Assembly: GCA_965235115.1 (NCBI GenBank) | Contig: OZ249436.1 | Coordinates: 2,792,001-2,856,000 of the forward strand | DNA length: 64,000 nucleotides | Source of the DNA: Laetmonice hystrix | Lineage: Eukaryota | Direction of reading: 5' to 3' | Part shown: positions 7,517 through 55,700 of the stretch, in pieces | Numbering within the stretch: the stretch's first letter is position 1 | How the letters are laid out: each line of letters opens with the position of its first letter | Program-made: the position numbers and the translations under genes | The notes under the pieces: model-generated | Database searches by the model: none | What the model was told of the DNA's origin: nothing | What the model saw: only the letters and a program-made list of their open reading frames with translations

Positions 7517-8468
7517 GATATTCGTGGTGACAATCGAGTTCACAACTACTCTCTTTATGGAGTAGATTTTTAGATATAAGTGGTGACAATCGAGTTCACA
7601 ACTACACTCTTTATGGAGTAGATTTTTAGATATAAGTGGTGACAATCGAGTTCACAACTACACTCTTTATGGAGTAGATTTTTAGATATTAGTGGTGACA
7701 ATCGAGTTCACAACTACACTCTTTATGGAGTAGATTTTTAGATATTCGTGGTGACAATCGAGTTCACAACTACACTCTTTATGGAGTAGATTTTTAGATA
7801 TTCGTGGTGACAATCGAGTTCACAACTACTCTCTTTATGGAGTAGATTTTTAGATATTCGTGGTGACAATCGAGTTCACAACTATACTCTCTATGGAGTA
7901 GATTTTTAGATATTCGTGGTGACAATCGAGTTCACAACTACACTCTTTATGGAGTAGATTTTTAGATATTCGTGGTGACAATCGAGTTCACAACTACACT
8001 CTTTATGGAGTAGATTTTTAGATATTAGTGGTGACAATCGAGTTCACAACTACTCTCTTTATGGAGTAGATTTTTAGATATTAGTGGTGACAATCGAGTT
8101 CACAACTACACTCTTTATGGAGTAGATTTTTAGATATTCGTGGTGACAATCGAGTTCACAACTACTCTCTTTATGGAGTAGATTTTTAGATATTCGTGTT
8201 GACAATCGAGTTCACAACTACACTCTTTGTGGAGTAGATTTTTAGATATTAGTGGTGACAATCGAGTTCACAACTACACTCTTTATGGAGTAGATTTTTA
8301 GATATTAGTGGTGACAATCGAGTTCACAACTACACTCTTTATGGAGTAGATTTTTAGATATTAGTGGTGACAATCGAGTTCACAACTACTCTCTTTATGG
8401 AGTAGATTTTTAGATATTCGTGGTGACAATCGAGTTCACAACTACACTCTTTATGGAGTAGATTTTTA
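7517..8468. repeat. 56-bp tandem repeat, 17 copies
   Basis: Unit GATATTCGTGGTGACAATCGAGTTCACAACTACACTCTTTATGGAGTAGATTTTTA, period 56. Confidence 0.97.
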
Positions 8469-22044: not shown

Positions 22045-23135
22045 TGTCCCCTACCTCACCAACTCATGATGTCCCCTACAGAACTACCTCACCATGTCAT
22101 GATGTCCCCTACAGAACTACCCCACCATTTCATGATGTCCCCTACAGAGCTACCCCGCCATTTCATGATGTCCCCTACAGAACTACCCCACCATTTCATG
22201 ATGTCCCCTACAGAACTACCTCACCATTTCATGATGTCCCCTACAGAACTACCCCACCATTTCATGATGTCCCCTACAGAACTACCCCACCATTTCATGA
22301 TGTCCCCTACAGAACTACCCCACCATGTCATGATGTCCCCTACAGAACTACCCCACCATGTCATGATGTCCCCTACAGAACTACCCCACCATTTCATGAT
22401 GTCCCCTACAGAACTACCTCACCATTTCATGATGTCCCCTACAGAACTACCCCACCATTTCATGATGTCCCCTACAGAACTACCTCACCATTTCATGATG
22501 TCCCCTACAGAACTACCCCACCATTTCATGATGTCCCCTACAGAACTACCCCACCATGTCATGATGTCCCCTACAGAACTACCCCACCATTTCATGATGT
22601 CCCCTACAGAACTAACCCACCATTTCATGATGTCCCCTACAGAACTACCCCACCATTTCATGATGTCCCCTACAGAACTACCCCACCGTTTCATGATGTC
22701 CCCTACAGAACTACCTCACTATTTCATGATGTCCCCTACAGAACTACCTCATCATGTCATGATGTCCCCTACAGAACTACCCCACCATTTCATGATGTCC
22801 CCTACAGAACTACTTCACCATTTCATGATGTCCCCCTACAGAACTACCCCACCATTTCATGATGTCCCCTACAGAACTAACCCACCATTTCATCATGTCC
22901 CCCTACAGAACTACCCCACCATGTCATGATGTCCCCTACAGAACTACCCCACCATTTCATGATGTCCCCTACAGAACTACCTCACCATTTCATGATGTCC
23001 CCTACAGAACTACCCCACCATTTCATGATGTCCCCTACAGAACTAACCCACCATTTCATCATGTCCCCCTACAGAACTACCCCACCATGTCATGATGTCC
23101 CCTACAGAACTACCCCACCATTTCATGATGTCCCA
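22045..23135. repeat. 33-bp minisatellite, about 33 copies
   Basis: Unit CATGATGTCCCCTACAGAACTACCCCACCATTT, with occasional +1 C frameshifts. Confidence 0.97.
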
Positions 23136-25483: not shown

Positions 25484-25692
25484 CGGATTTAAGATGATCC
25501 TTTGATGGAATGCCATTATCCATTCATCCATACCATGATTAGATATGAAGGGATTGTGAATGATGTGTCAGATCACTTTTATAGCGCCAGACGCCAGGCC
25601 TTTAATGACCAGGCCCACGCGTCTCTCCTCAATAGGTATCATAACGTATGCTCTTAGATCAGACTGACCCCGTGTAATCTCTGTGCGGATTT

Positions 25693-28600
25693 TTATCCCA
25701 TTCACCTTCTAGGTGAATGGGATTTTGAAATTGTATGGTTTCATCTTCCTTTTTTTTTTTCATTATTATTATCCCATTCACCTTCTAGGTGAATGGGATT
25801 TTGAAATTGTATGGTTTCATCTTCCTTATACATTATTATTATTCCCGTAGATGTAGTAGTAGTAGTAGTAGTAGTAGTTGTTAACTTTGTACCCCTAATT
25901 GGTATTATTATTCAAGATATCTCGATGAAACTTGGCACATAGGTTGGCCATGGGAAGATGAGTTGGCAATGTGACCCATGACGTCGTATGACGTAACGTC
26001 GTGACGTAATGACGTAAAAACCTTTCCAGATATATAGGCCTGTATTTAATGGTAAATTAGACTTTTTGAAAAACTATTGCCACCGTCAGTATTGGACAAG
26101 GGCCTAGCAAAATTGGGGAGGGCAGTTTGACCTTTGACCTTTGACCTATATGAGAACTAGGTCAAAATGTCCCAATCACCTAAATCCTTTCCAGTCCATC
26201 AATTTTTAAAGAAATCCCTTCAAATTTGGCTCATTGATAGACAAGGGAGGCCACATTACAGGTAAGATATGGCTAATTGATTTGACCTATATTTAAAGAG
26301 TCACGTGACTTCAAAGTTAAGAAAAATTTGCTAGAAGGCAATATAGGGCTATAACTCAAGAACGGTGCAAGATAGAGACAAAGTTACTATAGAACGAGTA
26401 TAGGAAGTCATATATATTCTTTCATTATCCACCATTATTTTTCAGGTCACGTGACCTATGACGTCATAAGGAGGTCACCTATATTTTCCAAGAGCTATAA
26501 CTAGTAAATGGTTGAAGATAGAGCCATAGTTACTATTAAACACTAATAGGAAGTCATGTATGATCTTTCATTATACAGCTTTATTTTTCAGGTCACGTGA
26601 CCTAATGACGTCATAAGGAGGTGACCTGTATTTTACCAGGGCTATAACTAGTAAATGGTTGAAGATAGAGCCATAGTTACTATTACACACAAATATGAAG
26701 TCATATATGATCTTTCATTATGGAGCTTTATTTTTCAGGTCACGTGACCTAATGACGTCATAAGGAGCTGACCTGTATTTTACCATGGCTATAACTAGTA
26801 AATGGTTGAAGATAGAGCTATAGTTACTATTAAACACTAATAGGAAGTCATACATGGTCTTTCATTATGCACCTTTATTTTTCAGGTCACGTGACCTATG
26901 ACGTCATAAGGAGGTCACCTATATTTTCCAAGGGCTATGACTATTAAATGGTTAAAGATAGAGCCAAAGTTACTATAGAACATGTATAGGAAGTCATATA
27001 TGCTCTTCCATTATACACCATTATTTTATAGGTCACGTGACCTATGACGTCATAACGAGGTCACCTATATTTTCTCAGGGCTATAACTTGTAAATGGTTG
27101 AAGTTAGAGGTATAGTTACTATTAAACACGTATAGGAAGTCATGTATGGTCTTTCATTATACACCTTTATTTTTTAGGTCACGTGACCTATGACGTCATA
27201 ACGAGGTCACCTATATTTTCTCAGGGCTATAACTTGTAAATGGTTAAAGTTAGAGGTATAGTTACTATTAAACACATATAGGAAGTCATGTATGGCCTTT
27301 CGAATGATACCATTTTTATTTAGGTCACGTGACCCTACGTGACCCTATGACGTCATCGGTATTTTCAGATAGCAGTATCTTGGAAACAGAGCCAGATAGA
27401 CCCTTAGTTACTATTGAAGACAGATAGGAAGTCATGTATGGCCTTTCAAATGATACCATTTTTATTTAGGTCACGTGACCCTACGTGACCCTATGACGTC
27501 ATCGGTATTTTCAGATAGCAGTAACTTGGAAACAGAGCCAGATAGACCCTTAGTTACTATTGAAGACAGATAGGAAGTCATGTATGGCCTTTCAAATGAT
27601 ACCATTTTTATTTAGGTCACGTGACCCTACGTGACCCTATGACGTCATCGATATTTTCAGATAGCAGTAACTTGGAAACAGAGCTAGATAGGCCCATAGT
27701 TACTATTGGGGACAGATAGGAAGTCATATATGGCCTTTCAAATGACACCATTTTTATTTAGGTCACCTGGCTCTACCTGACCCTATGACGTCATCGGTAA
27801 TTTCAGATGACTGTAACTTGGTAAAAGAGCCAGATGTGTGCATGGTTACTAATTAAACTCATGGGACATCTTATATCACCTTTCATTTCCCTATTTAAAT
27901 GCTGTCACGTGACCCCATCTGGCTCCATGACCCTTTTTACGTCATTTTCAACCAAAAATCAGTAATATCTCGAAAACGGTTAAAGATATCAACGTCTGGT
28001 TTTCGCCATTGGGGTTAAGATGGAAAACTTGACCCATTTTCCTCGAATTTGAAAAATCCAAGATGGCGGCCAAGTTGACCTAATTTTTTATTATAACACC
28101 ATTGGATTGGGTAATGGGTCAGCTATCTCTGACACCGAGATGGCTCCCCTAAAATCAATAGTTTTCATGTTATGGCCCCTCAAAGTTGGCCCTTTTAGGT
28201 CATTTTCAACCAAAAATCATTGATAACTCTAAAACGGTTAAAGATATCAACGTCTGGTTTTCGCCATTGGGGTTAGGATGGAAAACTTGACCCATTTTCC
28301 TCAAATTTGAAAAATCCAAGATGGCGGCCAAGTTGACCTAATTTTTGATTTTAAGACCATTGGATTGGGTAATGGGTCAGCTGTCTCTGACACCGAGATG
28401 GCTCCCCTAAAATCAATAGTTTTCATGTTATGGCCCCTCAAAGTTGGCCCTTTTACGTCATTTTCAACCAAAAATCAGTGATATCTCGAAAACGGTTTAA
28501 GATATCAACGTCTGGTTTTCGCCATTGGGGTTAAGATGGAAAACTTGACCCATTTTCCTCGAATTTGAAAAATCCAAGATGGCGGCCAAGTTGACCTAAT

Positions 28601-30624
28601 ATGTTGGATAATTGCCGGGAATCCTCCAAAACATGTTTCATAGTATGTCCCTTTAAATCCTTTCAACTCCCTCAAATTTAAAAGAAATTCTATGAAACTC
28701 ATGCAAGAACATTAGTGGCCTCAGTACAGGAACGACGGGATTAAGCGATCTGACCTATATTAAGCAAGTCACGTGTCCTCAAATTTGAGGAAAACTTGTG
28801 AGAAGTCGGTATGGGGCTATAACTGAAGAACGGTGCAAGATAGAGGCAAAGTTACTATAGAACACGTATAGGAAGTTCTATATCCTCTTTCATTGTGCAC
28901 CTTTATTTTTAAGGTAACGTGACCTATGACGTCATACCTAGGTTACCTATATTTTCCCAGGGCTATAACTTGTAAATGGTTGAAGATAGAGTGATAGTTA
29001 CTATTAAACACTAATAGGAAGTCATACATGCTCTTTCATTATGCCCCTTTATTTTTGAGGTCACGTGACCTATGACGTCGTAATGAGGTCACCTATGTTT
29101 TCTCAGGGTTATAACTTGTAAATGGTTGAAGATAGAGCCAGAGTTACTATTAAACACTAATAGGAAGTCATATATGCTTTTTCATCATAAACCTTTATTT
29201 TTCAGGTCACGTGACCTATGACGTCATAAGGAAGTCACCTAGATTTTCTCAGGGTTTTTAACTTCTAAATTATAAATTGTAGGTTCCACATGCCAAGTTG
29301 TCATGACCATCTGATCTATGACCTCAATTGACCTCAAGTAGTAATAAATACAATTACACAATTTTTAACTCGTGAATGGGATTCCTGTGCCATGGCACCT
29401 AGCAACTAGTTATTATTCCTGTAGTTAACTTTTTACCTCTAATTGGTTATAATTGGTCCTTTTTTTCAAGATATCTTAATGAAACTTGGCACATGTATTG
29501 CCCACATGACCCATGACGTCATATGACGTAACGTCATGACGTTATGACATAAAAACGGTTCCACATATATAGGCCTGTATTTCATGGTAAATTAGACTTT
29601 TTGAAAAACTATTGCCACCGTCAGTATTGGACAAGGGTCTAGCAAAATTGTGGAGTCCAGTTTGACCTTTGACCTTTGACCTATATGAGAACTAGGTCAA
29701 AATGTTCCAATCACCTAAATCCTTTCCAGTCCATCAATTTTCAAAGAAATCCCTTCAAACTTGGCTCATTGATAGACAAGGGAGGCCTCATTACAGGTAA
29801 GATAGGCCTAATTGATTTGACCTATATTAAGAGAGTCACGTGACTTCAAAGTTAGGAAAATTTGGCTGGAAGGCAATATTGGGCTATAACTCAAGAACGG
29901 TGCAAGATAGAGGCAAAGTTACTATAGAACACTTATAGGAAGTCATATATCCTCTTTCATTATCCACCATTATTTTTTAGGTCACGTGACCTATGACGTC
30001 ATAAGGAGGTCACCTATAGTTTCCAAGGGCTATAACTAGTAAATGGTTGAATATAGAGCCATAGTTACTATTAAACACTAGTAGGAAGTCATATATGATC
30101 TTTCATTATACAGCTTTATTTTTCAGGTCACGTGACCTAATGACGTCATAAGGAGGTGACCTGTATTTTACCAGGGCTATAACTTGTAAATGGTTGAAGA
30201 TAGAGCCATCGTTACTATTAAACACTAATAGGAAGTCATATATGGTCTTTCATTATGCACCTTTATTTTTTAGGTCACGTGACCTATGACGTCATAATGA
30301 GGTCACCTTGATTTTCTCAGGGTTATAACTTCTGAATGGTTGAAGATACAGTCAAAGTTACTATTAAACACTAATAGGAAGTCATATATGCTCTTTCATT
30401 ATGCACCTTCATTTTTCAGGTCACGTGACCTATGACGTCATAAGGAGGTCACCTAGATTTTCTCTGGGTTTAACTTCTAAATTCTAAATTGTAGGTTCCA
30501 CATGCCAAGTTGTCATGACCATATGATCCATGACCTCAATTGACCTCAAGTAGCAATAAATACAATTACACAATTTTTAATTGGTGAATGGGATACCTGT
30601 GCCCATGGCACCTGGCAACTAGTT
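25693..30624 (+). mobile_element. Non-autonomous Helentron (HINE), family 2, outer copy split by a nested copy
   Basis: 5' hairpin ATCCCATTCACCT-TCT-AGGTGAATGGGAT after a T-run. The body resumes at about 29412. The 3' end has subTIR GGTGAATGGGAT, hairpin GTGCC-CAT-GGCAC and CTAGTT ending at 30624. Confidence 0.85.
25769..29411 (+). mobile_element. HINE family 2, inner nested copy with expanded internal repeats
   Basis: Second identical 5' hairpin at 25771, a (TAG)n microsatellite, ~146-147-bp and 258-bp central tandem repeats, and a 3' end GTGAATGGGAT...GTGCCATGGCAC...CTAGTT ending at 29411. Confidence 0.85.
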
Positions 30625-31422: not shown

Positions 31423-32345
31423 TCTAGGGTTAGGTTTAGGGGCAGGGATAGGGGTAAGTTATTGGGGGTAGGTTTGTGGAGACCCAGGGTGGGCTGGCTG
31501 AGCCTGCTGGGAGAATGTACCATTATTAGCCAGACAGTCTAGGGTTAGGTTTAGGGGCAGGGATAGGGGTAAATTATTGGGGGTAGGTCTGTGGAGACCC
31601 AGAGTGGGCTGGCTGGGCCTGCTGGGAGAATGCACCATTATTAGCCTGACAGTCTAGGGTTAGGTTTAGGGGCAGGGATAGGGGTAAATTATTGGGGGTA
31701 GGTTTGTGGAGACCCAGAGTGGGCTGGCTGGGCCTGCTGGGAGAATGCACCATTATTAGCCTGACAGTCTAGGGTTAGGTTTAGGGGCAGGGATAGGGGT
31801 AAATTATTGGGGGTAGGTTTGTGGAGACCCAGGGTGGGCTGGCTGAGCCTGCTGGGAGAATGCACTATTATTAGCCTGACAGTCTAGGGTTAGGTTTAGG
31901 GGCAGGGATAGGGGTAAATTATTGGGGGTAGGTTTGTGGAGACCCAGGGTGGGCTGGCTGAGCCTGCTGGGAGAATGCACTATTATTAGCCTGACAGTCT
32001 AGGGTTAGGTTTAGGGGCAGGGATAGGGGTAAATTATTGGGGGTAGGTCTGTGGAGACCCAGGGTGGGCTGGCTGAGCCTGCTGGGAGAATGCACCATTA
32101 TTAGCCTGACAGTCTAGGGTTAGGTTTAGGGGCAGGGATAGGGGTAAATTATTGGGGGTAGGTCTGTGGAGACCCAGGGTGGGCTGGCTGGGCCTGCTGG
32201 GAGAATGTACCATTATTAGCCAGACAGTCTAGGGTTAGGTTTAGGGGCAGGGATAGGGGTAAATTATTGGGGGTAGGTTTGTGGATACCCAGGGTGGGCT
32301 GGCTGAGCCTGCTGGGAGAATGCACTATTATTAGCCCGACAGTCT
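31423..32345. repeat. 115-bp G-rich tandem repeat, 8 copies, with telomere-like TAGGGTTAGG
   Basis: TCTAGGGTTAGGTTTAGGGGCAGGGATAGGGG... at 31423, 31538, 31653 and onward. Confidence 0.95.
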
Positions 32346-34712
32346 GGACCGTGATTATCTTGTTTGACTTGACACTAACTATCTTTTCTACGATTAAATT
32401 TATACGGTAAAAACTGCAACGATAAGCAGAATTGTGATGAGCAGTGGATTGGCCTTACTGCCTGACAACTAACAACCAGACATGGCCGTACAGGTTTCAC
32501 TTAGATAAAAGATGATCTGCCATTAGAAGCTCACGGTCAACTAGGTGCAGTTGGTATTTCAGGAGCACTCGGTGCTGCCATCCGATCAACAGTGGGAGTT
32601 TCTGCAGGACAACTATGTCGGTTAGATCACTCCCGAACTAGACACGTTGTGGCGATACCACAATTGATCCCATCCCCGGGGAGTCACGTGATATATGACA
32701 TGTTCTGAGTAGGGTAAACTATGGCTCGATCTTGCACAGTTAATGACCTATAAGCTTCAGAAGATGCCAATGACGTAATTATGAGGTGACACGTCATACT
32801 ATGTAATGAATCTTGGTCTCAAATGAAAGAGCATGTAGGCTATATGACTTCCTATTACTGTTTAATAGTAACTATAGCTCTAACTTCTACCATTTACAAG
32901 TTATAGCCCTGAGAAAAATACCTAAAAAAATGTCAAGTGAAAGATCATATATGACTTCCTATTAGGGTTAAATGGTAACCATTGCTCTATCTTGAATGGT
33001 TTAGGATTTAGAAACCTTCGAAGATGTCAATGGCATCATTATGACATAATAATGATACATTACATCATAAATCTTGGTGTCAATTGAAAGAGCATACAAT
33101 GTATATGACTTCCTATTCCTGTTCAATAGTAACCATGGCTCCATCTTGCACCGTTTACAAGTTATAGGCTGAAGAAATAATGATAACATCATAACGTCAT
33201 GCTCCTCCCGCAGGCATGCACAGATCCAGGTATCGAGATTCTTTGCTGGAATTTAGAAGGTCAAAAAACGCTATTTCTGGAGATAGATGTAAAGTTTCTC
33301 AAAGTATTTAAGGCGCGTGTCGGTAGACCCCATTCTCCGCCAGAACATAGATTCTTTTTCCCTTCAACACGGAACGAACAGGTGCAAAGCATTCCGGCTA
33401 TTTTCAACTAGTTGAGTGATGAATCCACAAAATATAATGCCCTAAAATGGCCCTAAAAGGCGGAAAATCGTTTTATAAGAGCTTTTAATTTTTTAAGATT
33501 TCCCGAGACCCCTCTGCTGAAAATCCTGGACCCGTGGCTAGCCTAACAATAATTTTTTGTCAATTCTTCAAAAAGAAAGAGTGGGGGTATAGAGGGATGT
33601 GCCCACGCCGGGCGGCGCCGGGCGGCGCCACCCGGCACCGATTTTAGCCGCCTGGCACAAAACTAAAATGGTTTAAGTGCTGCCCGGCAGGAATTTTTAT
33701 CAGGCCTATCATCTGAAAAAATATCTCCCCATCTGCACCCCTTGCCAACTGAAAACCTTGCGCCTTCGCTGCTAGCGGAAAACTACCGCCCGGCACTCAT
33801 TTTTTTCTGGGCGCATCTGCCCATGGCAAGTTGACTTGTGCACTGAAAAGTGCTTTCCTATATATTTTAGTATTATACAAAAATGATAGCCTCATAACAT
33901 AACAGTTCAATGTGTCTAATTACAGTGCTAATTTTCTCTTCACCCTTGTTAACATTTCTTCTTGGTAGTAGAGTCGTCGCTTGAGTTTTGAAGCTTTTAT
34001 TCCTGAGGCACACGGTTGTCCCGCTTCGACCAATATGTCACTAGGCAGTCAGTGTCTATATGTTCCTCATAGACAAATCTATATCTCTGTCCTTTCTCTG
34101 CTCCTTCTCCCCTAGTCTCTCTCTCTCTCTCTCTTGGTGCTCTCATATATCCCCTCGTTCCCGTTTTTGCCCCAGTCCCAGTTTAAAGGATGGTCACTGG
34201 TCATTGGCCGGTGGCCCACGTCCAATTAACTGACCGCCCCCTGACCGGCTCCTCTGATTGAGAGCTGCCGCCCTATGGCTGGCATGTTATATGACTGAGA
34301 AGGTACCTCTTCTATAAACAGTCCTTAAGTATTTCTCACAGAGCGTTCCCCTTCTCCCTTCCGCAGACCCGCTCAAGTGATTGCTGCATCTATTGTGTGT
34401 GCTGCTCGCCAGGACGACTGCATACCTGTCTACTGTGCACACCGTTCGTTCACTTCTATCTCTCGCCATTTAGCCAACACGTAGTCATACATCATGAAAC
34501 TTTACCAATAGGTGCGAATGTCATCCACACCAGACTGTTGGCTCAGGCTAAACCAAGTGCAGCTGACCAAAAGCTTGTCGTGTCACTTGAACTCCACAAC
34601 CAACAATCAGTAGTATTGTTTTATTCAGCTCTCCTACATAAGATTCAAAAACAAATGCATTAGGCAGTTACACCTACAGTTCAAAGGCACAGCTAAGTCA
34701 GTTCTGAATACA

Positions 34713-34915
34713 GGTATATCGCCCATGATAACTTAAACTCCACGAAATTTGGTGGAAAGGAAAGATTCATGGCCCTGACCTTATCCCTAACCCCTAACCC
34801 CTAACCCCAGTTCCTACACCTCCCCAAAACATATCCCTACCCTACCCCTATCCCTGATATTAACCCTAACCCCTGCCCAAACATTTCGTGGAAAGTTATC
34901 ATGGGGGATAGAACC
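34713..34915. mobile_element. GG...CC MITE with 8-bp TSD and telomere-like (TAACCC) interior, Merlin- or MULE-like; cargo in the type-A HINE
   Basis: TIRs GGTATATCGCCCATGATAACTT / AAGTTATCATGGGGGATAGAACC flanked by TGAATACA on both sides. The empty site with a single TGAATACA is present in the B units at 37059 and 42619. Confidence 0.8.
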
Positions 34916-37900
34916 TGAATACACAATCATATTCCTCCCTCACTGGGAGGGAGGGGGAGTAGGCCGGCCGGCCGGCCCTTATCACCAGCACTTACGTAAC
35001 TCTCTCCCGGCCTGGCCAGGGACCGGCGGCCGCATCACAGTGGGAGATCTGTGTATTCAGAGATGCCAACAGTCAGACGGCAAAAATATTATTGTGAAGA
35101 CTATACCCATTAAAACTTACAATTCTGGCCATATTACCTTTCCAAAACAAGAACTAAACAGCCAGTGGTATACCTGAATCTATACACTTTGTAATTGTTG
35201 TATTTGTATATGGCTATCTTAAACAGGTTTAAGGTAGAGCCTGTCAACGTCAGATTACATTATTTCATCATAAATAAAAAAGATATTGGTAAATTTATGA
35301 AAAGAAATATGCAAAGTGATCAATCGTCAATAGCAGCACATATCTATTGACCAAATACACGATTCCTATATGACTAAAGCAGTTTTAGAAAAAAATGTCA
35401 AAAGTGACAAACTTCAAAGTCACGTGGTTCGGTAAAAATAGGTCAAATCGCTAATCCTTGGAATCGTATTGTGAACCTTTCGTTAGAGAGTGTTTCTGCC
35501 GAATATTGTCGAATTTTACCAAAAAATAGAAAAGGAGAAGCAATTTAACTGATTTGTGACCAATGACCCAGTTCACCCTAAGGTCAAAGGTCAAAGGTCA
35601 AATCAAGACTCAAATTGAGGCAGCACCTATGGCCGATTATGAGGCCATGACGGGTTTTAAAAAAAATTCCCAATATGAGCTTAAAAATGGCTTCAATTTT
35701 CATAATACGTTTGACGTCATCACGTTATGACGTGACGTCACATGACGTCAGGATTCTATGCCTGACCATACTTCGTCATTGTCAAGATGTGTGCCAAATT
35801 TCATTTCGATATTTTGAAAATTGACTGAGATAGACATACAAGTTTACTACTACTACTACTACTACTACTACAACTACGACGCCAAAAACTAGACACGTTG
35901 TGGCGATACCACAATAGATCCCATCCCCGGGGAGTCACGTGATATATGACTTCCTATTCCTGTTCAATAGTAACCATGGCTCAATCTTTCACCGTTTACG
36001 AGTTGGAGGCTTAGGAAAATAATCTTAATATCATTATAATCTCATACGTCATGATCCTGCTTTCATGCAGGCTCAGATCCAGTACCGCAAGAAAGGAGGG
36101 GCACCAAAGGTGCAAGGCAAACATGGGCGCGGGGGGGGGGGACTTGAATTTAGAAAGTCAAAGAACGTTACTTCTGGAGCTAGATGTGAAGTTTCTCAAA
36201 GTATTTCAGGCGCATGTAGGGGTCCGGGGGTTGGACCCCCTCTCCTGCTCCCCCAGAGCATAGATTCATTTTTCCTTAGATTCAGCGGGACACCATCGAA
36301 CGAACAGGTGCAAAGCATTCTGCCTATTTTAAACTGGTTGAGTGATGAATAGGCCTACAAAAAATATAGTGCACTAAATGGGTCCATAAAAGGCTTCTAA
36401 TTTAAAAAAAAAAACATTTCGGCGACCACCCTGCTGAAAATCCTAGATACGTGGCTGTATTTAGACCTAGCCTAACAATAATGTCAATTCTTTAAAAAGA
36501 AAGAGTGCAGATACGCCCCTGACATGTCGAAAGGGATCATAGATATCTACTGCATGGTATATCTACCTATTTTGATATTAATCATTGTGGAAGGATACAT
36601 TAAAATCGTAATTATATATCTAGAGACTCTGATTGCCAAGCAATACAGGTAGGTCCCATTTCCCGAATGGTTTTCTATCATTACCTACATTTTTCTCTCA
36701 TTTAATTATTGTCCCAACAATAGCGTCATTTCCATTCACATGGAAGTTACTAAGTATTCTTTTGACATTATGAAATATTATAGTCCTGATGGATTATATG
36801 GATTATACCCGTTACGGGCATCATGACAAATATCACAGACTCAAGAACAATAGGTGCGAATGCCATCCACACCAGGCTGTTGGCTCACGCTGAAACCAAG
36901 TGCAGCTGGCCAAAAGTTTGCCGTGTCTCTTGAACTCCACAGCCAACAATCAGTAGTAGCCTAGTGTTTTATTCAGCTCTCCTATGTAAGATTTAAAAAC
37001 AAATGCATGGAGACAGTAACACAGTTCAAAGGCACAGCTAATTCAGTTATGTCAGTTCTGAATACACAATCATCCTCCACCAAACCGACCCTGACTGGGA
37101 GGGAGGGGGCGGAGTCACAACCCGCCTGCCGACCCGGCCGCCTGGCCGGCCCTTATCACCAGCGCTTACGTAACCCTCTGCCGACCCTGGCTCTGGCCTC
37201 CCAGCAGGTGATTTGTGTATTCAGAGATGCCACCTGTCAGAGTGTAAAAATATTATAGTGAAGACTATACCCATTAAAACTTACAATTCTGGCCATATTA
37301 CCTTTCCAAAACAAGAACTAAACAGTCAGTGGTATACCTGAATCTATACACTTTGTAATTGTTGTATTTGTATATGGCTATCTTAAACAGGTTTAAGGTA
37401 GAGCCTGTCAACGTCAGATTACATTATTTCATCATAAATAAAAAAGATATTGGTAAATTTATGAAAAGAAATATGCAAAGTGACCAATCGTCAATAGCAG
37501 CACATATCTAGTGACCAAATACACGATTCCTATATGACTAAAGCAGTTTTAGAAAAAAATGTCAAAAGTGACAAACTTCAAAGTCACGTGGTTCGGCGAA
37601 AATAGGTCAAATCGCTAATCCTTGGAATCGTATTGTGAACCTTTCGTTAGAGAGTGTTTTTGCCGAATATTGTCGAATTTTACCAAAAAATAGAGAAGGA
37701 GAAGCAATTTAACCGATTTGTGACCAATGACCCAGTTCACCCTAAGGTCAAAGGTCAAAGGTCAAATCAAGACTCAAATTGAGGCAGCACCTTTGGCCGA
37801 TTATGAGGGCATGGCGGGTTTTTAAAAAAAATTCCCAATATGAGCTTAAAAATGGCTTCAATTTTCATAATACGTTTGACGTCATCACGTCATGACGTGA

Positions 37901-39632
37901 CGTTACATGACGTCAGGATTCGATGCCTGACCATACTTTGTCATTGTCAAGATGTGTGCCAAATTTCATTTTGATATTTTGAAAATTGACTGAGATAGAC
38001 ATACAAGTTTACTACTACTACTACTACAACTACGACGCCAAAAACTAGACACGTTGTGGCGATACCACAATTGATCCCATCCCCGGGGAGTCACGTGATA
38101 GGCCTATATGACATGTTCTGAGTAGGGTAAACTATGGCTCGATCTTGCACAGTTAATGACCTATAAGCTTTAGAAGATGCCAATGACGTAATTATGAGGT
38201 GACACGTCATACTGCGTAATGAATCTTGGTCTCAAATGAAAGAGCATGTAGGCTATATGACTTCCTATTACTGTTTAGGCTAATAGTAACTATAGCTCTA
38301 ACTTCTACCATTTACAAGTTATAGCCCTGAGAAAAATACCTATGACACCTTATGATGCCAGTCAAGTCACGTAAAAAAATGTCAAGTGAAAGATCATATA
38401 TGACTTCCTATTAGGGTTAAATGGTAACCATTGCTCTATCTTGAATGGTTTAGGATTTAGAAACCTTCGAAGATGTCAATGGCATCATTATGACATAATA
38501 ATGATAGGGGCCTTACATTACATCATAAATCTTGGTGTCAATTGAAAGAGCATACAATGTATATGACTTCCTATTCCTGTTCAATAGTAACCATGGCTCC
38601 ATCTTGCACCGTTTACAAGTTATAGGCTGAAGAAATAATGATAACATCATAACGTCATGCTCCTCCCGCAGGCATGCACAGATCCAGCACTGCACAAAAG
38701 GAGGGGCACCAGAGGTGCGAGGCGAACATGTGGGCGGGGACTTGAATCAGAGAACCTCGATATGGTATCGAGGTTCTTTGCTGGAATTTAGAAGGTCAAA
38801 AAACGCTATTTCTGGAGATAGATGTAAAGTTTCTCAAAGTATTTAAGGCGCGTGTCGGTAGACCCCATTCTCCGCCAGAACATAGATTCTTTTTCCCTTC
38901 AACACGGAACGAACAGGTGCAAAGCATTCCGGCTATTTTCAACTGGTTGAGTGATGAATCAACAAAATATAATGCCCTAAAATGGCCCTAAAAGGCGGAA
39001 AATCGCTTCTAAGAGCTTTTAATTTTTAAAGATTTCCCGAGACCCCTCTGCTGAAAATCCTGGACCCGTGGCTAGCCTAACAATAATTTTTTGTCAATTC
39101 TTCAAAAAGAAAGAGTGGGGGTATAGAGGGATGTGCCCACGCCGGGCGGCGCCACCCGGCACCGATTTTAGCCGCCTGGCACAAAACTAAAATGGTTTAA
39201 GTGCTGCCCGGCAGGAATTTTTATCAGGCCTATCATCTGAAAAAATATCTCCCCATCTGCACCCCTTGCCAACTGAAAACCTTGCGCCTTCGCTGCTAGC
39301 GCAAAACTACCGCCCGGCATTCATTTTTTTCTGGGCGCATCTGCCCATGGCAAGTTGACATGTGCACTGACAAGTGCTTTCCTATATATTTTAGTATTAT
39401 ACAAAAATGATAGCATCATAACATAACAGTTCAATGTGTCTAATTACAGTGCTAATTTTCTCTTCACCCTTGTTAACATTTCTTTTTGGTAGTAGAGTCG
39501 TCGCTTGAGTTTTGAAGTTTTTATTCCTGAGGCACACGGTTGTCCCGCTTCGACCAATATGTCACTAGGCAGTCAGTGTCTATCCTCATAGTCAAATCTA
39601 TATCTCTGTCCTTTCTCTGCTCCTTTTCCCCT

Positions 39633-39694
<62 letters not shown>

Positions 39695-40254
39695 TGCTCT
39701 TATATATCCCCTCGTTCACGTTTTTGCCCCAGTCCCAGTTTAAAGGATGGTCACTGGTCATTGGCCGGTGGCCCACGTCCAATTAACTGACCGCCCCCTG
39801 ACCGGCTCCTTTGATTGAGAGCTGCCGCCCGATGGCTGGCATGTTATATGACTGAGAAGGTACCTCTTAAGTATTTCTCACAGAGCGTTCCCCTTCTCCC
39901 TTCCGCAGACCCGCTCAAGTGATTGCTGCATCTATTGTGTGTGCTGCTCGCCAGGACGACTGCATACCTGTATACTGTGCACACCGTTCGTTCACTTCTA
40001 TCTCTCGCCATTCAGCCAACACGTAGTCATACATCATGAAACTTTACCAATAGGTGCGAATGTCATCCACACCAGACTGTTGGCTCAGGCTAAACCAAGT
40101 GCAGCTGACCAAAAGCTTGTCGTGTCACTTGAACTCCACAACCAACAATCAGTAGTATTGTTTTATTCAGCTCTCCTACATAAGATTAAAAAACAAATGC
40201 ATTAGGCAGTTACACCTACAGTTCAAAGGCACAGCTAAGTCAGTTCTGAATACA

Positions 40255-40457
40255 GGTATATCGCCCATGATAACTTAAACTCCACGAAATTTGGTGGAAA
40301 GGAAAGATCCATGGCCCTGACCTTATCCCTAACCCCTAACCCCTAACCCCAGTTCCTACACCTCCCCAAAACATATCCCTACCCTACCCCTATCCCTGAC
40401 ATTAACCCTAACCCCTGCCCAAACATTTCGTGGAAAGTTATCATGGGGGATAGAACC
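40255..40457. mobile_element. Second copy of the 8-bp-TSD MITE, carried in HINE body A'
   Basis: Same TIRs and TGAATACA TSD as 34713-34915. Confidence 0.8.
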
Positions 40458-43400
40458 TGAATACACAATCATATTCCTCCCTCACTGGGAGGGAGGGGGG
40501 AGTAGGCCGGCCGGCCGGCCCTTATCACCAGCACTTACGTAACTCTCTCCCGGCCTGGCCAGGGACCGGCGGCCGCATCACAGTGGGAGATCTGTGTATT
40601 CAGAGATGTCAACTGTCAGACGGCAAAAATATTATTGTGAAGACTATACCCATTAAAACTTACAATTCTGGCCATATTACCTTTCCAAAACGAGAACTAA
40701 ACAGCCAGTGGTATACCTGAATCTATACACTTTGTAATTGTTGTATTTGTATATGGCTATCTTAAACAGGTTTAAGCTAGAGCCTGTCAACGTCAGATTA
40801 CATTATTTCATCATAAATAAAAAAGATATTGGTAAATTTATGAAAAGAAATATGCAAAGTGACCAATCGTCAATAGCAGCACATATCTATTGACCAAATA
40901 CACGATTCTTATATGACTAAAGCAGTTTTAGAAAAAAAATGTCAAAAATGACAAACTTCAAAGTCACGTGGTTCGGTGAAAATAGGTCAAATCGCTAATC
41001 CTTGGAATCGTATTGTGAACCTTTCGTTAGAGAGTGTTTCTGCCGAATATTGTCGAATTTTACAAAAAAATAGAAAAGGAGAAGCAATTTAACCGATTTG
41101 TGACCAATGACCCAGTTCACCCTAAGGTCAAAGGTCAAAGGTCAAATCAAGACTCAAATTGAGGCAGCACCTATGGCCGATTATGAGGCCATGACGGGTT
41201 TTTAAAAAAATTCCCAATATGAGCTTAAAAATTGCTTCAATTTTCATAATACGTTTGACGTCATCACGTTATGACGTGACGTCACATGACGTCAGGATTC
41301 GATGCCTGACGATACTTCGTCATTGTCAAGATGTGTGCCAAATTTCATTTCGATATTTTGAAAATTGACTGAGATAGACATACAAGTTTACTACTACTAC
41401 TACTACTACTACTACAACTACGACGCCAAAAACTAGACACGTTGTGGCGATACCACAATTGATCCCATCCCGGGGGAGTCACGTGATATATGACTTCCTA
41501 TTCCTGTTCAATAGTAACCATGGCTCAATCTTTCACCGTTTACGAGTTGGAGGCTTAGGAAAATAATGTTAATATCATTATAATCTCATACGTCGATCAT
41601 GATCCTGCTTTCATGCAGGCTCAGATCCAGTACCGCAAGAAAGGAGGGGCACCAAAGGTGCAAGGCGAACATGGGCGCGGGGGGGGGGGGGACTTGAATT
41701 TAGAAAGTCAAAGAACGTTACTTCTGGAGCTAGATGTGAAGTTTCTCAAAGTATTTCAGGCGCATGTAGGGGTCCGGGGGTTGGACCCCCTCTCCTGCTC
41801 CCCCAGAGCATAGATTCATTTTTCCTTAGATTCAGCGGGACACCATCGAACGAACAGGTGCAAAGCATTCTGCCTATTTTAAACTGGTTGAGTGATGAAT
41901 ACTGAATAGGCCTACACAAAATATAGTGCACTAAATGGGTCCATAAAAGGCTTCTAATTTAAAAAAAAAAACATTTCGGCGACCACCCTGCTGAAAATCC
42001 TAGATACGTGGCTGTATTTAGACCTAGCCTAACAATAATGTCAATTCTTTAAAAAGAAAGAGTGCAGATACGCCCCTGACATGTCGAAAGGGATCATAGA
42101 GATCTACTGCATGGTATATCTACCTATTTTGATATATTAATCATTGTGGAAGGATACATTAAAATCGTAATTATATCTAGAGACTCTGATTGCCAAGCAA
42201 TACAGGTAGGTCCCATTTCCCGAATGGTTTTCTATCATTACCTATATTTTTCTCTCATTTAATTATTGTCCCAACAATAGCGTCATTTCCATTCACATGG
42301 AAGTTACTAAGTATTCTTTTGACATTATGAAATATTATAGTCCTGATGGATTATATGGATTATACCCGTTACGGGCATCATGACAAATATCACAGACTCA
42401 AGAACAATAGGTGCGAATGCCATCCACACCAGGCTGTTGGCTCACGCTGAAACCAAGTGCAGCTGGCCAAAAGTTTGCCGTGTCTCTTGAACTCCACAGC
42501 CAACAATCAGTAGTAGCCTAGTGTTTTATTCAGCTCTCCTATGTAAGATTTAAAAACAAATGCATTAGACAGTTATATCTACAGTTCAAAGGCACAGCTA
42601 ATTCAGTTATGTCAGTTCTGAATACACAATCATCCTCCACCAAACCGACCCTGACTGGGAGGGAGGGGGCGGAGTCACAACCCGCCTGCCAACCCGGCCG
42701 CCTGGCCGGCCCTTATCACCAGCGCTTACGTAACCCTCTGCCGACCCTGGCTCTGGCCTCCCAGCAGGTGATTTGTGTATTCAGAGATGCCACCTGTCAG
42801 AGTGTAAAAATATTATAGTGAAGACTATACCCATTAAAACTTACAATTCTGGCCACATTACCTTTCCAAAACAAGAACTAAACAGTCAGTGGTATACCTG
42901 AATCTATACACTTTGTAATTGTTGTATTTGTATATGGCTATCTTAAACAGGTTTAAGGTAGAGCCTGTCAACGTCAGATTACATTATTTCATCATAAATA
43001 AAAAAGATATTGGTAAATTTATGAAAAGAAATATGCAAAGTGACCAATCGTGAATAGCAGCACATATCTAGTGACCAAATACACGATTCCTATATGACTA
43101 AAGCAGTTTTAGAAAAAAATGTCAAAAGTGACAAACTTCAAAGTCACGTGGTTCGGCGAAAATAGGTCAAATCGCTAATCCTTGGAATCGTATTGTGAAC
43201 CTTTCGTTAGAGAGTGTTTTTGCCGAATATTGTCGAATTTTACCAAAAAATAGAGAAGGAGAAGCAATTTAACCGATTTGTGACCAATGACCCAGTTCAC
43301 CCTAAGGTCAAAGGTCAAAGGTCAAATCAAGACTCAAATTGAGGCAGCACCTTTGGCCGATTATGAGGGCATGACGGGTTTTTAAAAAAAATTCCCAATA

Positions 43401-45814
43401 TGAGCTTAAAAATGGCTTCAATTTTCATAATACGTTTGACGTCATCACGTCATGACGTGACGTTACATGACGTCAGGATTCGATGCCTGACCATACTTTG
43501 TCATTGTCAGGATGTGTGCCAAATTTCATTTTGATATTTTGAAAATTGACTGAGATAGACATACAAGTTTACTACTACTACTACTACTACAACTACGACG
43601 CCAAAAATAATACAGAAGACGAAACCACACAATTTCTAAATCCCATCCCCTCCGTAGGGGATGGGATAATAATACAGAAGACGAAACCACACAATTTCTA
43701 AATCCCATCCCCTCCGTAGGGGATGGGATAACTAGACACGTTGTGGCGATACCACAATTGATCCCATCCCCGGGGAGTCACGTGATATATGACATGTTCT
43801 GAGTAGGGTAAACTATGGCTCGATCTTGCACAGTTAATGACCTATAAGCTTTAGAAGATGCCAATGACGTAATTATGAGGTGACACGTCATACTATGTAA
43901 TGAATCTTGGTCTCAAATGAAAGAGCATGTAGGCTATATGACTTCCTATTACTGTTTAATAGTAACTATAGCTCTAACTTCTACCATTTACAAGTTATAG
44001 CCCTGAGAAAAATACCTAAAAAAATGTCAAGTGAAAGATCATATATGACTTCCTATTAGGGTTAAATGGTAACCATTGCTCTATCTTGAATGGTTTAGGA
44101 TTTAGAAACCTTCGAAGATGTCAATGGCATCATTATGACATAATAATGATACATTACATCATAAATCTTGGTGTCAATTGAAAGAGCATACAATGTATAT
44201 GACTTCCTATTCCTGTTCAATAGTAACCATGGCTCCATCTTGCACCGTTTACAAGTTATAGGCTGAAGAAATAATGATAACATCATAACGTCATGCTCCT
44301 CCCGCAGGCATGCACAGATCCAGGTATCGAGGTTCTTTGCTGGAATTTAGAAGGTCAAAAAACGCTATTTCTGGAGATAGATGTAAAGTTTCTCAAAGTA
44401 TTTAAGGCGCGTGTCGGTAGACCCCATTCTCCGCCAGAACATAGATTCTTTTTCCCTTCAACACGGAACGAACAGGTGCAAAGCATTCCGGCTATTTTCA
44501 ACTAGTTGAGTGATGAATCCACAAAATATAATGCCCTAAAATGGCCCTAAAAGGCGGAAAATCGTTTTATAAGAGCTTTTAATTTTTTAAGATTTCCCGA
44601 GACCCCTCTGCTGAAAATCCTGGACCCGTGGCTAGCCTAACAATAATTTTTTGTCAATTCTTCAAAAAGAAAGAGTGGGGGTATAGAGGGATGTGCCCAC
44701 GCCGGGCGGCGCCGGGCGGCGCCGGGCGGCGCCACCCGGCACCGATTTTAGCCGCCTGGCACAAAACTAAAATGGTTTAAGTGCTGCCCGGCAGGAATTT
44801 TTATCAGGCCTATCATCTGAAAAAATATCTCCCCATCTGCACCCCTTGCCAACTGAAAACCTTGCGCCTTCGCTGCTAGCGGAAAACTACCGCCCGGCAC
44901 TCATTTTTTTCTGGGCGCATCTGCCCATGGCAAGTTGACTTGTGCACTGAAAAGTGCTTTCCTATATATTTTAGTATTATACAAAAATGATAGCCTCATA
45001 ACATAACAGTTCAATGTGTCTAATTACAGTGCTAATTTTCTCTTCACCCTTGTTAACATTTCTTCTTGGTAGTAGAGTCGTCGCTTGAGTTTTGAAGCTT
45101 TTATTCCTGAGGCACACGGTTGTCCCGCTTCGACCAATATGTCACTAGGCAGTCAGTGTCTATATGTTCCTCATAGACAAATCTATATCTCTGTCCTTTC
45201 TCTGCTCCTTCTCCCCTAGTCTCTCTCTCTCTCTCTTGGTGCTCTCATATATCCCCTCGTTCCCGTTTTGGCCCCAGTCCCAGTTTAAAGGATGGTCACT
45301 GGTCATTGGCCGGTGGCCCACGTCCAATTAACTGACCGCCCCCTGACCGGCTCCTCTGATTGAGAGCTGCCGCCCTATGGCTGGCATGTTATATGACTGA
45401 GAAGGTACCTCTTCTATAAACAGTCCTTAAGTATTTCTCACAGAGCGTTCCCCTTCTCCCTTCCGCAGACCCGCTCAAGTGATTGCTGCATCTATTGTGT
45501 GTGCTGCTCGCCAGGACGACTGCATACCTGTCTACTGTGCACACCGTTCGTTCACTTCTATCTCTCGCCATTTAGCCAACACGTAGTCATACATCATGAA
45601 ACTTTACCAATAGGTGCGAATGTCATCCACACCAGACTGTTGGCTCAGGCTAAACCAAGTGCAGCTGACCAAAAGCTTGTCGTGTCACTTGAACTCCACA
45701 ACCAACAATCAGTAGTATTGTTTTATTCAGCTCTCCTACATAAGATTCAAAAACAAATGCATTAGGCAGTTACACCTACAGTTCAAAGGCACAGCTAAGT
45801 CAGTTCTGAATACA

Positions 45815-46024
45815 GGTATATCGCCCATGATAACTTAAACTCCACGAAATTTGGTGGAAAGGAAAGATTCATGGCCCTGACCTTATCCCTAACCCCTAAC
45901 CCCTAACCCCTAACCCCAGTTCCTACACCTCCCCAAAACATATCCCTACCCTACCCCTATCCCTGATATTAACCCTAACCCCTGCCCAAACATTTCGTGG
46001 AAAGTTATCATGGGGGATAGAACC
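45815..46024. mobile_element. Third copy of the 8-bp-TSD MITE, carried in HINE body A
   Basis: Same TIRs and TSD, with one extra TAACCCC unit. Confidence 0.8.
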
Positions 46025-47257
46025 TGAATACACAATCATATTCCTCCCTCACTGGGAGGGAGGGGGAGTAGGCCGGCCGGCCGGCCCTTATCACCAGCAC
46101 TTACGTAACTCTCTCCCGGCCTGGCCAGGGACCGGCGGCCGCATCACAGTGGGAGATCTGTGTATTCAGAGATGCCAACAGTCAGACGGCAAAAATATTA
46201 TTGTGAAGACTATACCCATTAAAACTTACAATTCTGGCCATATTACCTTTCCAAAACAAGAACTAAACAGCCAGTGGTATACCTGAATCTATACACTTTG
46301 TAATTGTTGTATTTGTATATGGCTATCTTAAACAGGTTTAAGGTAGAGCCTGTCAACGTCAGATTACATTATTTCATCATAAATAAAAAAGATATTGGTA
46401 AATTTATGAAAAGAAATATGCAAAGTGATCAATCGTCAATAGCAGCACATATCTATTGACCAAATACACGATTCCTATATGACTAAAGCAGTTTTAGAAA
46501 AAAATGTCAAAAGTGACAAACTTCAAAGTCACGTGGTTCGGTAAAAATAGGTCAAATCGCTAATCCTTGGAATCGTATTGTGAACCTTTCGTTAGAGAGT
46601 GTTTCTGCCGAATATTGTCGAATTTTACCAAAAAATAGAAAAGGAGAAGCAATTTAACTGATTTGTGACCAATGACCCAGTTCACCCTAAGGTCAAAGGT
46701 CAAAGGTCAAATCAAGACTCAAATTGAGGCAGCACCTATGGCCGATTATGAGGCCATGACGGGCTTTTAAAAAAAATCCCAATATGAGCTTAAAAATGGC
46801 TTCAATTTTCATAATACGTTTGACGTCATCACGTTATGACGTGACGTCACATGACGTCAGGATTCGATGCCTGACCATACTTCGTCATTGTCAAGATGTG
46901 TGCCAAATTTCATTTCGATATTTTGAAAATTGACTGAGATAGACATACAAGTTTACTACTACTACTACTACTACAACTACGACGCCAAAAATAATACAGA
47001 AGACGAAACCACACAATTTCTAAATCCCATCCCCTCCGTAGGGGATGGGATAATAATACAGAAGACGAAACCACACAATTTCTAAATCCCATCCCCTCCG
47101 TAGGGGATGGGATAATTAAGGCGCAGATAAAAAAAATAGTGCCTTGGCCACCCTTAACCTCCGCAATATAATCCCTTCACCAACCCTACCTCCCCCCTCC
47201 CCCCCCCCCCCCTCCACCCAGAGAATACGCCCCGGCCGGCCGTTCCGATCACCTGTT

Positions 47258-52774: not shown

Positions 52775-55700
52775 TGTGTATAGGCGGTTTGCCGTAAGTA
52801 CTGGCCGTTACCCCAGTGAGGTGACTGCCTGGTGTAGGCGGGTTGCCGTAAGTACTGGCCGTTGCCCCAGTGAGGGGACTGCCTGGTGTAGGCGGGTTGC
52901 CGTAAGTACTGACCGTTACCCCAGTGAGGTGACTGCCTGGTGTAGGCGGGTTGCCGTAAGTACTGGCCGTTACCCCAGTGAGGTGACTGCCTGGTGTAGG
53001 CGGGTTGCCGTAAGTACTGGCCGTTGCCCCAGTGAGGGGACTGCCTGGTGTAGGCGGGTTGCCGTAAGTACTGACCGTTACCCCAGTGAGGTGACTGCCT
53101 GGTGTAGGCGGGTTGCCGTAAGTACTGACCGTTACCCCAGTGAGGTGACTGCCTGGTGTAGGCGGGTTGCCGTAAGTACTGGCCGTTACCCCAGTGAGGT
53201 GACTGCCTGGTGTAGGCGGGTTGCCGTAAGTACTGTCCGTTACCCCAGTGAGGTGACTGCAGGGTGTAGGCGTGTTGCCGTCAGTACTGTCCGTTACCCC
53301 AGTGAGGTGACTGCCTGGTGTAGGCGGGTTGCCGTAAGTACTGGCCGTTACCCCAGTGAGGGGACTGCCTGGTGTAGGCGGGTTGCCGTAAGTACTGGCC
53401 GTTACCCCAGTGAGGTGACTGCCTGGTGTAGGCGGGTTGCCGTAAGTACTGGCCGTTACCCCCAGTGAGGTGACTGCCTGGTGTAGGCGGGTTGCCGTAA
53501 GTACTGGCCGTTACCCCAGTGAGGTGACTGCCTGGTGTAGGCGGGTTGCCGTAAGTACTGGCCGTTACCCCAGTGAGGTGACTGCCTGGTGTAGGCGGGT
53601 TGCCGTAAGTACTGGCCGTTACCCCAGTGAGGTGACTGCCTGGTGTAGGCGGGTTGCCGTAAGTACTGGCCGTTACCCCCAGTGAGGTGACTGCCTGGTG
53701 TAGGCAGGCTGCCGTAAGTACTGGCCGTTACCCCAGTGAGGTGACTGCCTGGTGTAGGCGGGTTGCCGTAAGTACTGGCCGTTACCCCCAGTGAGGTGAC
53801 TGCCTGGTGTAGGCGGGTTGCCGTAAGTACTGGCCGTTACCCCAGTGAGGTGACTGCCTGGTGTAGGCGGGTTGCCGTAAGTACTGGCCGTTACCCCAGT
53901 AAGGTGACTACAGGGTGTAGGCGGGTTGCCGTAAGTACTGGCCGTTACCCCAGTGAGGTGACTGCCTGGTGTAGGCGGGTTGCCGTAAGTACTGGCCGTT
54001 ACCCCAGTGAGGTGACTGCCTGGTGTAGGCGGGTTGCCGTAAGTACTGGCCGTTACCCCCAGTGAGGTGACTGCCTGGTGTAGGCGGGTTGCCGTAAGTA
54101 CTGGCCGTTACCCCAGTGAGGTGACTGCCTGGTGTAGGCGGGTTGCCGTAAGTACTGGCCGTTGCCCCAGTGAGGGGACTGCCTGGTGTAGGCGGGTTGC
54201 CGTAAGTACTGGCCGTTACCCCCAGTGAGGTGACTGCAGGGTGTAGGCGTGTTGCCGTAAGTACTGCCCGTTACCCCAGTGAGGTGACTGCCTGGTGTAG
54301 GCGGGTTGCCGTAAGTACTGGCCGTTACCCCAGTGAGGTGACTGCCTGGTGTAGGCGGGTTGCCGTAGGTACTGGCCGTTACCCCAGTGAGGTGACTGCC
54401 TGGTGTAGGCGGGTTGCCGTAAGTACTGGCCGTTACCCCAGTGAGGTGACTGCCTGGTGTAGGCGGGTTGCCGTAAGTACTGGCCGTTACCCCCAGTGAG
54501 GTGACTGCCTGGTGTAGGCGGGTTGCCGTAAGTACTGGCCGTTACCCCAGTGAGGTGACTGCCTGGTGTAGGCGGGTTGCTGTAAGTACTGGCCGTTACC
54601 CCAGTGAGGTGACTGCCTGGTGTAGGCGGGTTGCCGTAAGTACTGGCCGTTACCCCCAGTGAGGTGACTGCCTGGTGTAGGCGGGTTGCCGTAAGTACTG
54701 ACCGTTACCCCAGTGAGGGGACTGCCTGGTGTAGGTGGGTTGCCGTAAGTACTGGCCGTTACCCCAGTGAGGTGACTGCAGGGTGTAGGCGGGTTGCCGT
54801 AAGTACTGCCCGTTACCCCAGTGAGGTGACTGCCTGGTGTAGGCGGGTTGCCGTAAGTACTGGCCGTTACCCCAGTGAGGTGACTGCCTGGTGTAGGCGG
54901 GTTGCCGTAAGTACTGGCCGTTACCCCAGTGAGGTGACTGCAGGGTGTAGGCGGGTTGCCGTAAGTACTGGCCGTTACCCCAGTGAGGTGACTGCCTGGT
55001 GTAGGCGGGTTGCCGTAAGTACTGGCCGTTACCCCCAGTGATCGAGGGGACTGCCTGGTGTAGGTGGGTTGCCGTAAGTACTGGCCGTTACCCCAGTGAG
55101 GTGACTGCCTGGTGTAGGCGGGTTGCCGTAAGTACTGGCCGTTACCCCAGTGAGGTGACTGCCTGGTGTAGGCGGGTTGCCGTAAGTACTGGCCGTTACC
55201 CCAGTGAGGTGACTGTAGGCGGGTTGCCGTAAGTACTGGCCGTTACCCCAGTGAGGTGACTGCAGGGTGTAGGCGGGTTGCCGTAAGTACTGCCCGTTAC
55301 CCCAGTGAGGTGACTGCCTGGTGTAGGCGGGTTGCCGTAAGTACTGGCCGTTACCCCAGTGAGGGGACTGCCTGGTGTAGGCGGGTTGCCGTAAGTACTG
55401 CCCGTTACCCCAGTGAGGTGACTGCCTGGTGTAGGCGGGTTGCCGTAAGTACTGGCCGTTACCCCCAGTGAGGTGACTGCCTGGTGTAGGCGGGTTGCCG
55501 TAAGTACTGGCCGTTACCCCAGTGAGGTGACTGCCTGGTGTAGGCGGGTTGCCGTAAGTACTGGCCGTTACCCCAGTGAGGTGACTGCCTGGTGTAGGCG
55601 GGTTGCCGTAGGTACTGGCCGTTACCCCCAGTGAGGTGACTGCCTGGTGTAGGCGGGTTGCCGTAAGTACTGGCCGTTACCCCAGTGAGGTGACTGCCTG

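Follow-up and report, generated by a model that had tools for sequence, protein, structure and literature searches.

The window, i.e., the whole stretch of 64,000 bp of Laetmonice hystrix DNA analysed here (contig OZ249436.1), revealed two copies of one repeat family (family 3) on its plus strand. Directly behind a run of five T (25690–25694), the outer copy begins with a 5' hairpin (25695..25723; 13-bp stem, 3-nt loop), which was detected by a perfect-hairpin scan and a DNA fold and is made up of the 5' subterminal inverted repeat (subTIR) and its inverted arm. It is followed by the remainder of the outer head (25724..25770), comprising a 26-nt motif common with another family of the window (family 2), T11, a C, and (ATT)3, and its end at 25770 represents the insertion point. 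There, the inner copy of 3641 nt (25771..29411) starts with a complete 5' hairpin and runs to a terminal CTAGTT. Its head (25771..25843) carries the hairpin (25771–25799), the common motif, and TTATAC-(ATT)4, followed by a (GTA)n microsatellite (25853..25878), which is collapsed in the outer copy, a central array of about ten 146-nt repeats (26369..27835), 2.6 copies of a 258-nt repeat present in the inner copy only (27935..28600), a second 146-nt array of 3.1 copies (28814..29270), and the 3' end (29372..29411) with an 11-nt subTIR (29372–29382), a 12-nt palindrome (29387–29398), CTAG (29406–29409), and TT. Afterwards, the outer copy is resumed (29412..30624) with ATTATT, its post-head body, a 146-nt array of 4.1 copies (29881–30482), and its own 3' end, displaying a subTIR (30584–30594), an imperfect palindrome (30599–30611), and CTAGTT to 30624. 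Altogether, the outer copy (25695–25770 plus 29412–30624) has a size of 1.29 kb. In both copies, the right arm of the hairpin is repeated in direct orientation as the 3' subTIR (at 29372 and 30584), and each 3' subTIR is followed by a short palindrome and the CTAGTT ending at 29411 or 30624. Within the inner copy, 28654–29270 repeats 26181–26803 at about 82%, so that this copy itself seems to be an old internal duplication or composite.

The assignment of these copies to the HINEs in the initial annotation was borne out by their subTIRs, hairpin, microsatellite, 146-nt repeats, 3' palindrome, TT flanks, and non-coding nature. As defined in the accessible part of PMC4067079, HINEs possess subterminal inverted repeats of 11–15 nt, the 5' one lying 2–4 nt and the 3' one about 38–60 nt from the respective end, an inverted arm beside the 5' subTIR that makes a hairpin, and a 3' palindrome or stem-loop 8–35 nt from the end; a definition of HLE2 is given in the accessible part of PMC11417382. 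In family 3, the 11-nt subTIR was found right after TT at 25695 and 25771, with the 3' copies located 40 and 41 nt from the ends, and the 5' hairpins display a 13-bp stem with a 3-nt loop. The perfect 12-nt palindrome of the inner copy lies 13 nt from the end and recurs in the outer copy with a single additional base; the minimum-energy fold of its 56-nt stretch is a different one. Microsatellite and central repeats are represented by (GTA)n and the 146-nt arrays. TT was found on both sides of all ends, and comparison with unbroken heads in the window fits a gain of two T. The longest stop-free stretch comprises 68 codons in the whole family-3 nest and 128 in family 2, a search of 25400–47400 against Rfam resulted in no matches, and no autonomous partner, which would encode a Rep-helicase with or without an endonuclease domain between the same ends, was found in the examined parts of the window. 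Judged by this sequence anatomy, both family-3 copies can be classified as non-autonomous Helentron/HLE2 elements (HINEs), filed here as HLE2/HINE-like with neither Helentron nor Helitron2 chosen.

As the initial annotation had stated, the two hairpins, both with perfect 13-bp stems and 3-nt loops, start 76 bp apart at 25695 and 25771, and two 3' ends with CTAGTT finish at 29411 and 30624. A prefix of 57 nt is identical in the outer and inner heads, past which they diverge into T11-C-(ATT)3 and TTATAC-(ATT)4, respectively. The outer copy was also correctly described as resuming in its ATT tract, since the text from 29412 can be aligned with the inner copy, beginning at the last two ATT units of the latter; thus, the head at 25695 and the body ending at 30624 belong to one interrupted element of about 1.29 kb. 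Comparison of the inner with the outer copy revealed differences at 40 of 459 post-head sites and at 9 of 164 tail sites, and as they are also unlike in module content, they represent distinct lineages. Heads and complete 3' ends, two each, follow a last-in-first-out order, and the junction falls exactly at CTAGTT, with the ATT phase kept and two T gained. The diverged bodies and the outer copy resuming in the phase of its tract argue for nesting and not for a duplication of the head: a second tail does not arise from a tandem duplication of the head, nor would a tandemly duplicated body finish at CTAGTT. A head doublet lacking a second 3' end, named beforehand as the mark of simple tandem duplication, is not what the family-3 locus displays, as the second tail is present. 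On the evidence of these junctions, the family-3 pair is very probably a real nest, in which a HINE of 3.64 kb interrupts another member of its family at a TT of the (ATT)n tract, 76 nt into the latter.

Sequencing contigs of four runs were placed on 25520–26345 (509, 455, 394, and 1), with 25842–25888 and doubly fitting reads skipped. Three of these runs belong to one sample and contain 0.37–0.45 of the sequence words, while run X1 (share of 0.06, one contig) provided no evidence. Summed contig depth amounted to 10^4–10^5 on the element versus 30–49 on the unique flank, which is a sign of a large family but not a copy number. Loose contig ends at 25793 revealed further head variants with other hairpin cores and the same post-hairpin motif. 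Among the positions listed, the outer copy has the contig-majority base at 9 of 14, the inner copy being further from the majority, so that the nest requires an inner copy from a divergent subfamily. In two of the four runs, a single-depth contig tracks the left flank to 25692 and then continues with 142 or 135 non-fitting letters; this contig is likely to represent an allele without the nest, and it stops about 4 nt earlier than a gain of two T predicts. The head-to-head (go-back) joint was absent from the nine joints listed, for which doubly fitting reads and 25842–25888 had been skipped, and none of the contigs placed on 25520–26345 spans the whole nest locus.

Searching collections for the head pattern of the two families resulted in a single match in a metagenome scan, which was not a hairpin, and in no matches in two viral-contig scans. 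A prokaryote-genome scan revealed 18 matches, small hairpins in Flavobacteriaceae-type records, which were judged unrelated, with the HINE tail absent at 17 of the 18 loci. These bacterial matches (18 records, mostly Psychroserpens) display a conserved hairpin with the same 7-nt outer arms, which was judged a chance likeness.

On the minus strand, family 2 forms a stack (32636..47115) in the order H H A1 H H B1 A2 B2 A3, consisting of four identical heads (H) of 62 nt (starts at 47113, 47051, 43729, and 43667) and five bodies (A and B), each ending in CTAGTT (43730, 41431, 38043, 35887, and 32636). The kinship of its heads with those of family 3 was confirmed by alignment of the post-hairpin motif (score of 42, reached by 0 of 2000 shuffles), and its opposite orientation and unlike hairpin core proved to be as described. 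The proposal that both families were entered at an equivalent position stood with regard to the kind of tract, but not to the distance, which is +76 (47 nt past the hairpin) in family 3 and +62 (34 nt) in family 2. Self-nesting of family 2 was likewise upheld in part, as its junctions are of the same types as in family 3, but the stack is unbalanced, with four heads for five tails. Its head-head junctions (2/2) and its tail-body junctions (3/3) are mutually identical, and the tail-body junction plus the head end gives exactly the unbroken head-body text, with two T gained. Considering the four heads for five tails and the identical junctions, the stack may record a single self-insertion event that was multiplied later by copying. 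A pure last-in-first-out parse fails by one head, and either one head was lost from a tandem or a read-through composite with one head and two tails moved. Comparison of body A1 with A3 revealed 7 differences in 3208 sites (microsatellite trimmed), that of B1 with B2 15 in 2121, and A2 is distinct from A1 and A3 at 40–41 of about 3180. A1 as a recombinant of B and A was ruled out, as it carries A alleles throughout, with the seven differences from A3 just given.

Family 2 revealed further features. At 43730/43729 (minus strand), a tail is joined directly to a head, as expected from a circle or from an insertion right behind a 3' end. All three A bodies harbor a MITE of about 203–210 nt (34705–34923, 40247–40465, and 45807–46032, minus strand) which has imperfect terminal inverted repeats and is flanked by a target duplication of 8 nt, while the B bodies have a single copy of the target. 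The 146-nt repeat of family 3 (26369–30482) is about 67–72% like degenerate repeats near the 3' ends of the A bodies (32841–33167, 38254–38625, and 43935–44261).

A third HINE (9944–about 12002) is un-nested and consists of T6, a hairpin head, a (TCCG)n microsatellite, 468-nt repeats, a 3' subTIR at 11972, and a 3' stem-loop, with one head and one tail. Two of the three HINE loci in the window are thus nested, both with their own family. Since our generic scan recovered families 2 and 3 and missed the third HINE, further HINEs in the window may have been missed as well. Minisatellites are very dense in the window, with 84 Tandem Repeats Finder rows (e.g., 7517–8468, 22051–23134, 31423–32345, and 52781–59197), one of them displaying 119 copies of a 54-nt unit.

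The initial annotation had taken the repeated self-insertion as an argument for a mechanism rather than chance. This is likely, though only two events are surely independent and the window was picked as odd. On both strands, only 5 of the 258 TT steps of the outer copy are located in the ATT tract. For a passive target, we estimated 7e-5 to 7.5e-3 per insertion (TT or WATT; 1,000–20,000 copies and 0.5–1.5 Gb assumed), and the chance of two of three loci being nested was between 1e-8 for a TT target and 4e-2 for a strict ATTATT target with 20,000 copies in 0.5 Gb, again with assumed sizes. According to this rough null with its assumed copy number and genome size, passive TT targeting is unlikely. 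T5, TTAATT, and T6, which are the window's three un-nested left flanks, indicate that the target is not strictly ATTATT, which speaks against the generous corner of the null. Family 3 bypassed ten nearer TT steps in its T11 run, and together with the unequal offsets, this fits a sequence preference for ATT as well as a ruler measuring from the hairpin. The same orientation would come automatically with a strand-specific T-rich target. A homology of the post-hairpin stretch of the head to the stretch behind the 3' subTIR was not significant (scores reached by 119 and 1972 of 2000 shuffles), so that mimicry of the 3' end seems limited to the subTIR itself.

On balance, though by a narrow measure, we favor the joint explanation of a nest plus an active insertion bias; regarded separately, aimed insertion into heads is plausible, and an active bias is slightly better than even. 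A transposase supplied in trans would have copied the 3.64-kb element, presumably via a joined-end intermediate, which has been reported for FoHeli1 (PMC5148889, accessible part), and the copy would have been joined into a resident 1.29-kb relative, in the (ATT)n tract that closely follows its 5' hairpin. The sequence of this insertion revealed a T^T step of the head tract as the site, the same orientation, complete ends, two T added, and no other target duplication. The head tract would be a probable hot spot beyond its TT content, and, speculatively, the resident hairpin or subTIR may recruit the transposase, the nearest favourable TT downstream being used. Recruitment by the resident hairpin is proposed because its right arm equals the 3' subTIR in sequence and orientation, and the normal 3' cut is located 27–29 nt behind the latter. 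If copying later ran from the outer head to the first tail, a two-headed composite would arise, and if it ran from an inner head through to the second tail, a two-tailed one; such composites could account for the unbalanced stack of family 2. As a tentative and rather unlikely generalization, HLE2/Helentron transposases might choose their targets by binding a resident 5' hairpin, the right arm of which mimics a 3' subTIR, and joining at a TT 30–50 nt downstream, the head serving as a family-specific landing pad conserved from fungi to animals; in the accessible part of PMC4067079, target choice by these transposases is treated as a hypothesis only.

Among the alternatives, a real nest with a passive cause survives best, though we regard it as unlikely: the element would carry its own preferred ATT/T target, and very many copies, local clustering, and the selection of the window would do the rest, with the hairpin not being recognized at all. 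This agrees with the TT/T-rich preference published for HINEs (accessible parts of PMC4067079 and PMC7492417), with left flanks of heads ending in TATT in four of the seven seen, with the contig depth of 10^4–10^5 versus 30–49, which suggests a large family though it is no copy number, with offsets from the hairpin that are not fixed, and with maize helitrons, which reportedly land close to or within other helitrons (accessible part of PMC3288121, citing another paper). However, this reading depends on the most generous assumptions of the null, in both independent nests the inner and outer copies are of one family even though the organism has further head variants, and short doubled 5' ends recur in Fusarium (PMC5148889). 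We consider it improbable that the transposase cuts or terminates cryptically in the head tract by reading the right arm as a 3' subTIR, thereby releasing head-only and headless body-tail units that would be joined separately, nests being one outcome of several. While the right arm equals the 3' subTIR in sequence and orientation and is followed by a 4–5-bp stem and TT, and family 2 has one body more than heads, heads and tails are equal in number in family 3, the two heads of which differ in their tracts, the imbalance of family 2 would also be settled by read-through composites or the loss of one 62-nt tandem head, and the likeness of head to tail is not significant beyond the subTIR. Finally, it is very improbable that separate tandem duplications of head and body or an assembly error imitate the nest, for although the heads are identical over 57 nt with bodies 8.7% apart (p of about 0.006 for the whole prefix and 0.08 outside the hairpin) and the locus is spanned by none of the placed contigs, the bodies have diverged with unlike modules, the tracts of the two heads are not the same, the junction coincides exactly with CTAGTT and keeps the ATT phase, and misassembly does not make two diverged lineages with exact element ends.

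If the head insertion is aimed and family-specific, it allows an inexpensive test, across the genome, of the way in which these enzymes recognize their ends. Heads acting as landing pads would stack copies in occupied ground, make chimeric multi-ended elements, and seed satellite-bearing nests, and the chimeric consensus sequences arising from such nests would then matter for repeat annotation. If the cause is passive, the locus represents an ordinary nested repeat.

In the literature, mostly without subscription journals and without supplements (including Table S6 of PMC5148889), we found no report of HINEs inserting into their own heads in an aimed and family-specific manner, and the accessible part of PMC12001565 revealed nothing on head nesting. 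With the oyster element Cg_HINE (PMC7492417) and the HINE/DINE-1-like elements of Thomas et al. 2014 (PMC4067079), the copies described here share the 5' subTIR with inverted arm, the microsatellite, the 3' palindrome, the TT flanks, and the lack of coding sequences, a likeness by anatomy as described in the accessible parts of both papers. The 3' subTIR about 40 nt from the end is common to these HINEs as well, and the central repeats are of about 146 nt here compared to mostly 140–180 nt in Cg_HINE (same parts of these papers). In contrast, the insertion of copies into their own head is not described in those parts of either paper. In maize, multiple 5' termini were found in 17.6% of the helAs and derived from nests according to the accessible part of PMC3288121; these helitrons resemble our elements in having extra termini from nested copies and remobilised composites, but they are canonical HLE1, and a fixed head site is not described in that part. 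The autonomous HLE2 element HelenXT233 of Xenopus has two left ends in direct repeat (PMC11417382, accessible part) and thus shares doubled left ends with family 3, but its left ends are non-identical and a second tail is not mentioned in that part, whereas the family-3 heads share an identical 57-nt prefix and are accompanied by two tails. The FoHelis, non-canonical Helitrons of Fusarium, repeat their first 31, 65, 73, or 85 nt (Chellapan et al. 2016, PMC5148889); according to the authors, a self-insertion was followed by a transposition that started at the outermost 5' end and stopped at the first 3' end. These short repeated 5' termini of 31–85 nt are similar to the doubled heads of our study, but while FoHelis have several 5' ends per one 3' end and the nest was mostly inferred, an intact nest with both tails was found here in an animal-type HINE, and two families are concerned. 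Self-insertion has thus already been inferred for this class of transposons, of which the family-3 nest is a clean animal example, its intact state giving a direct view of the intermediate proposed for the doubled 5' ends in Fusarium.
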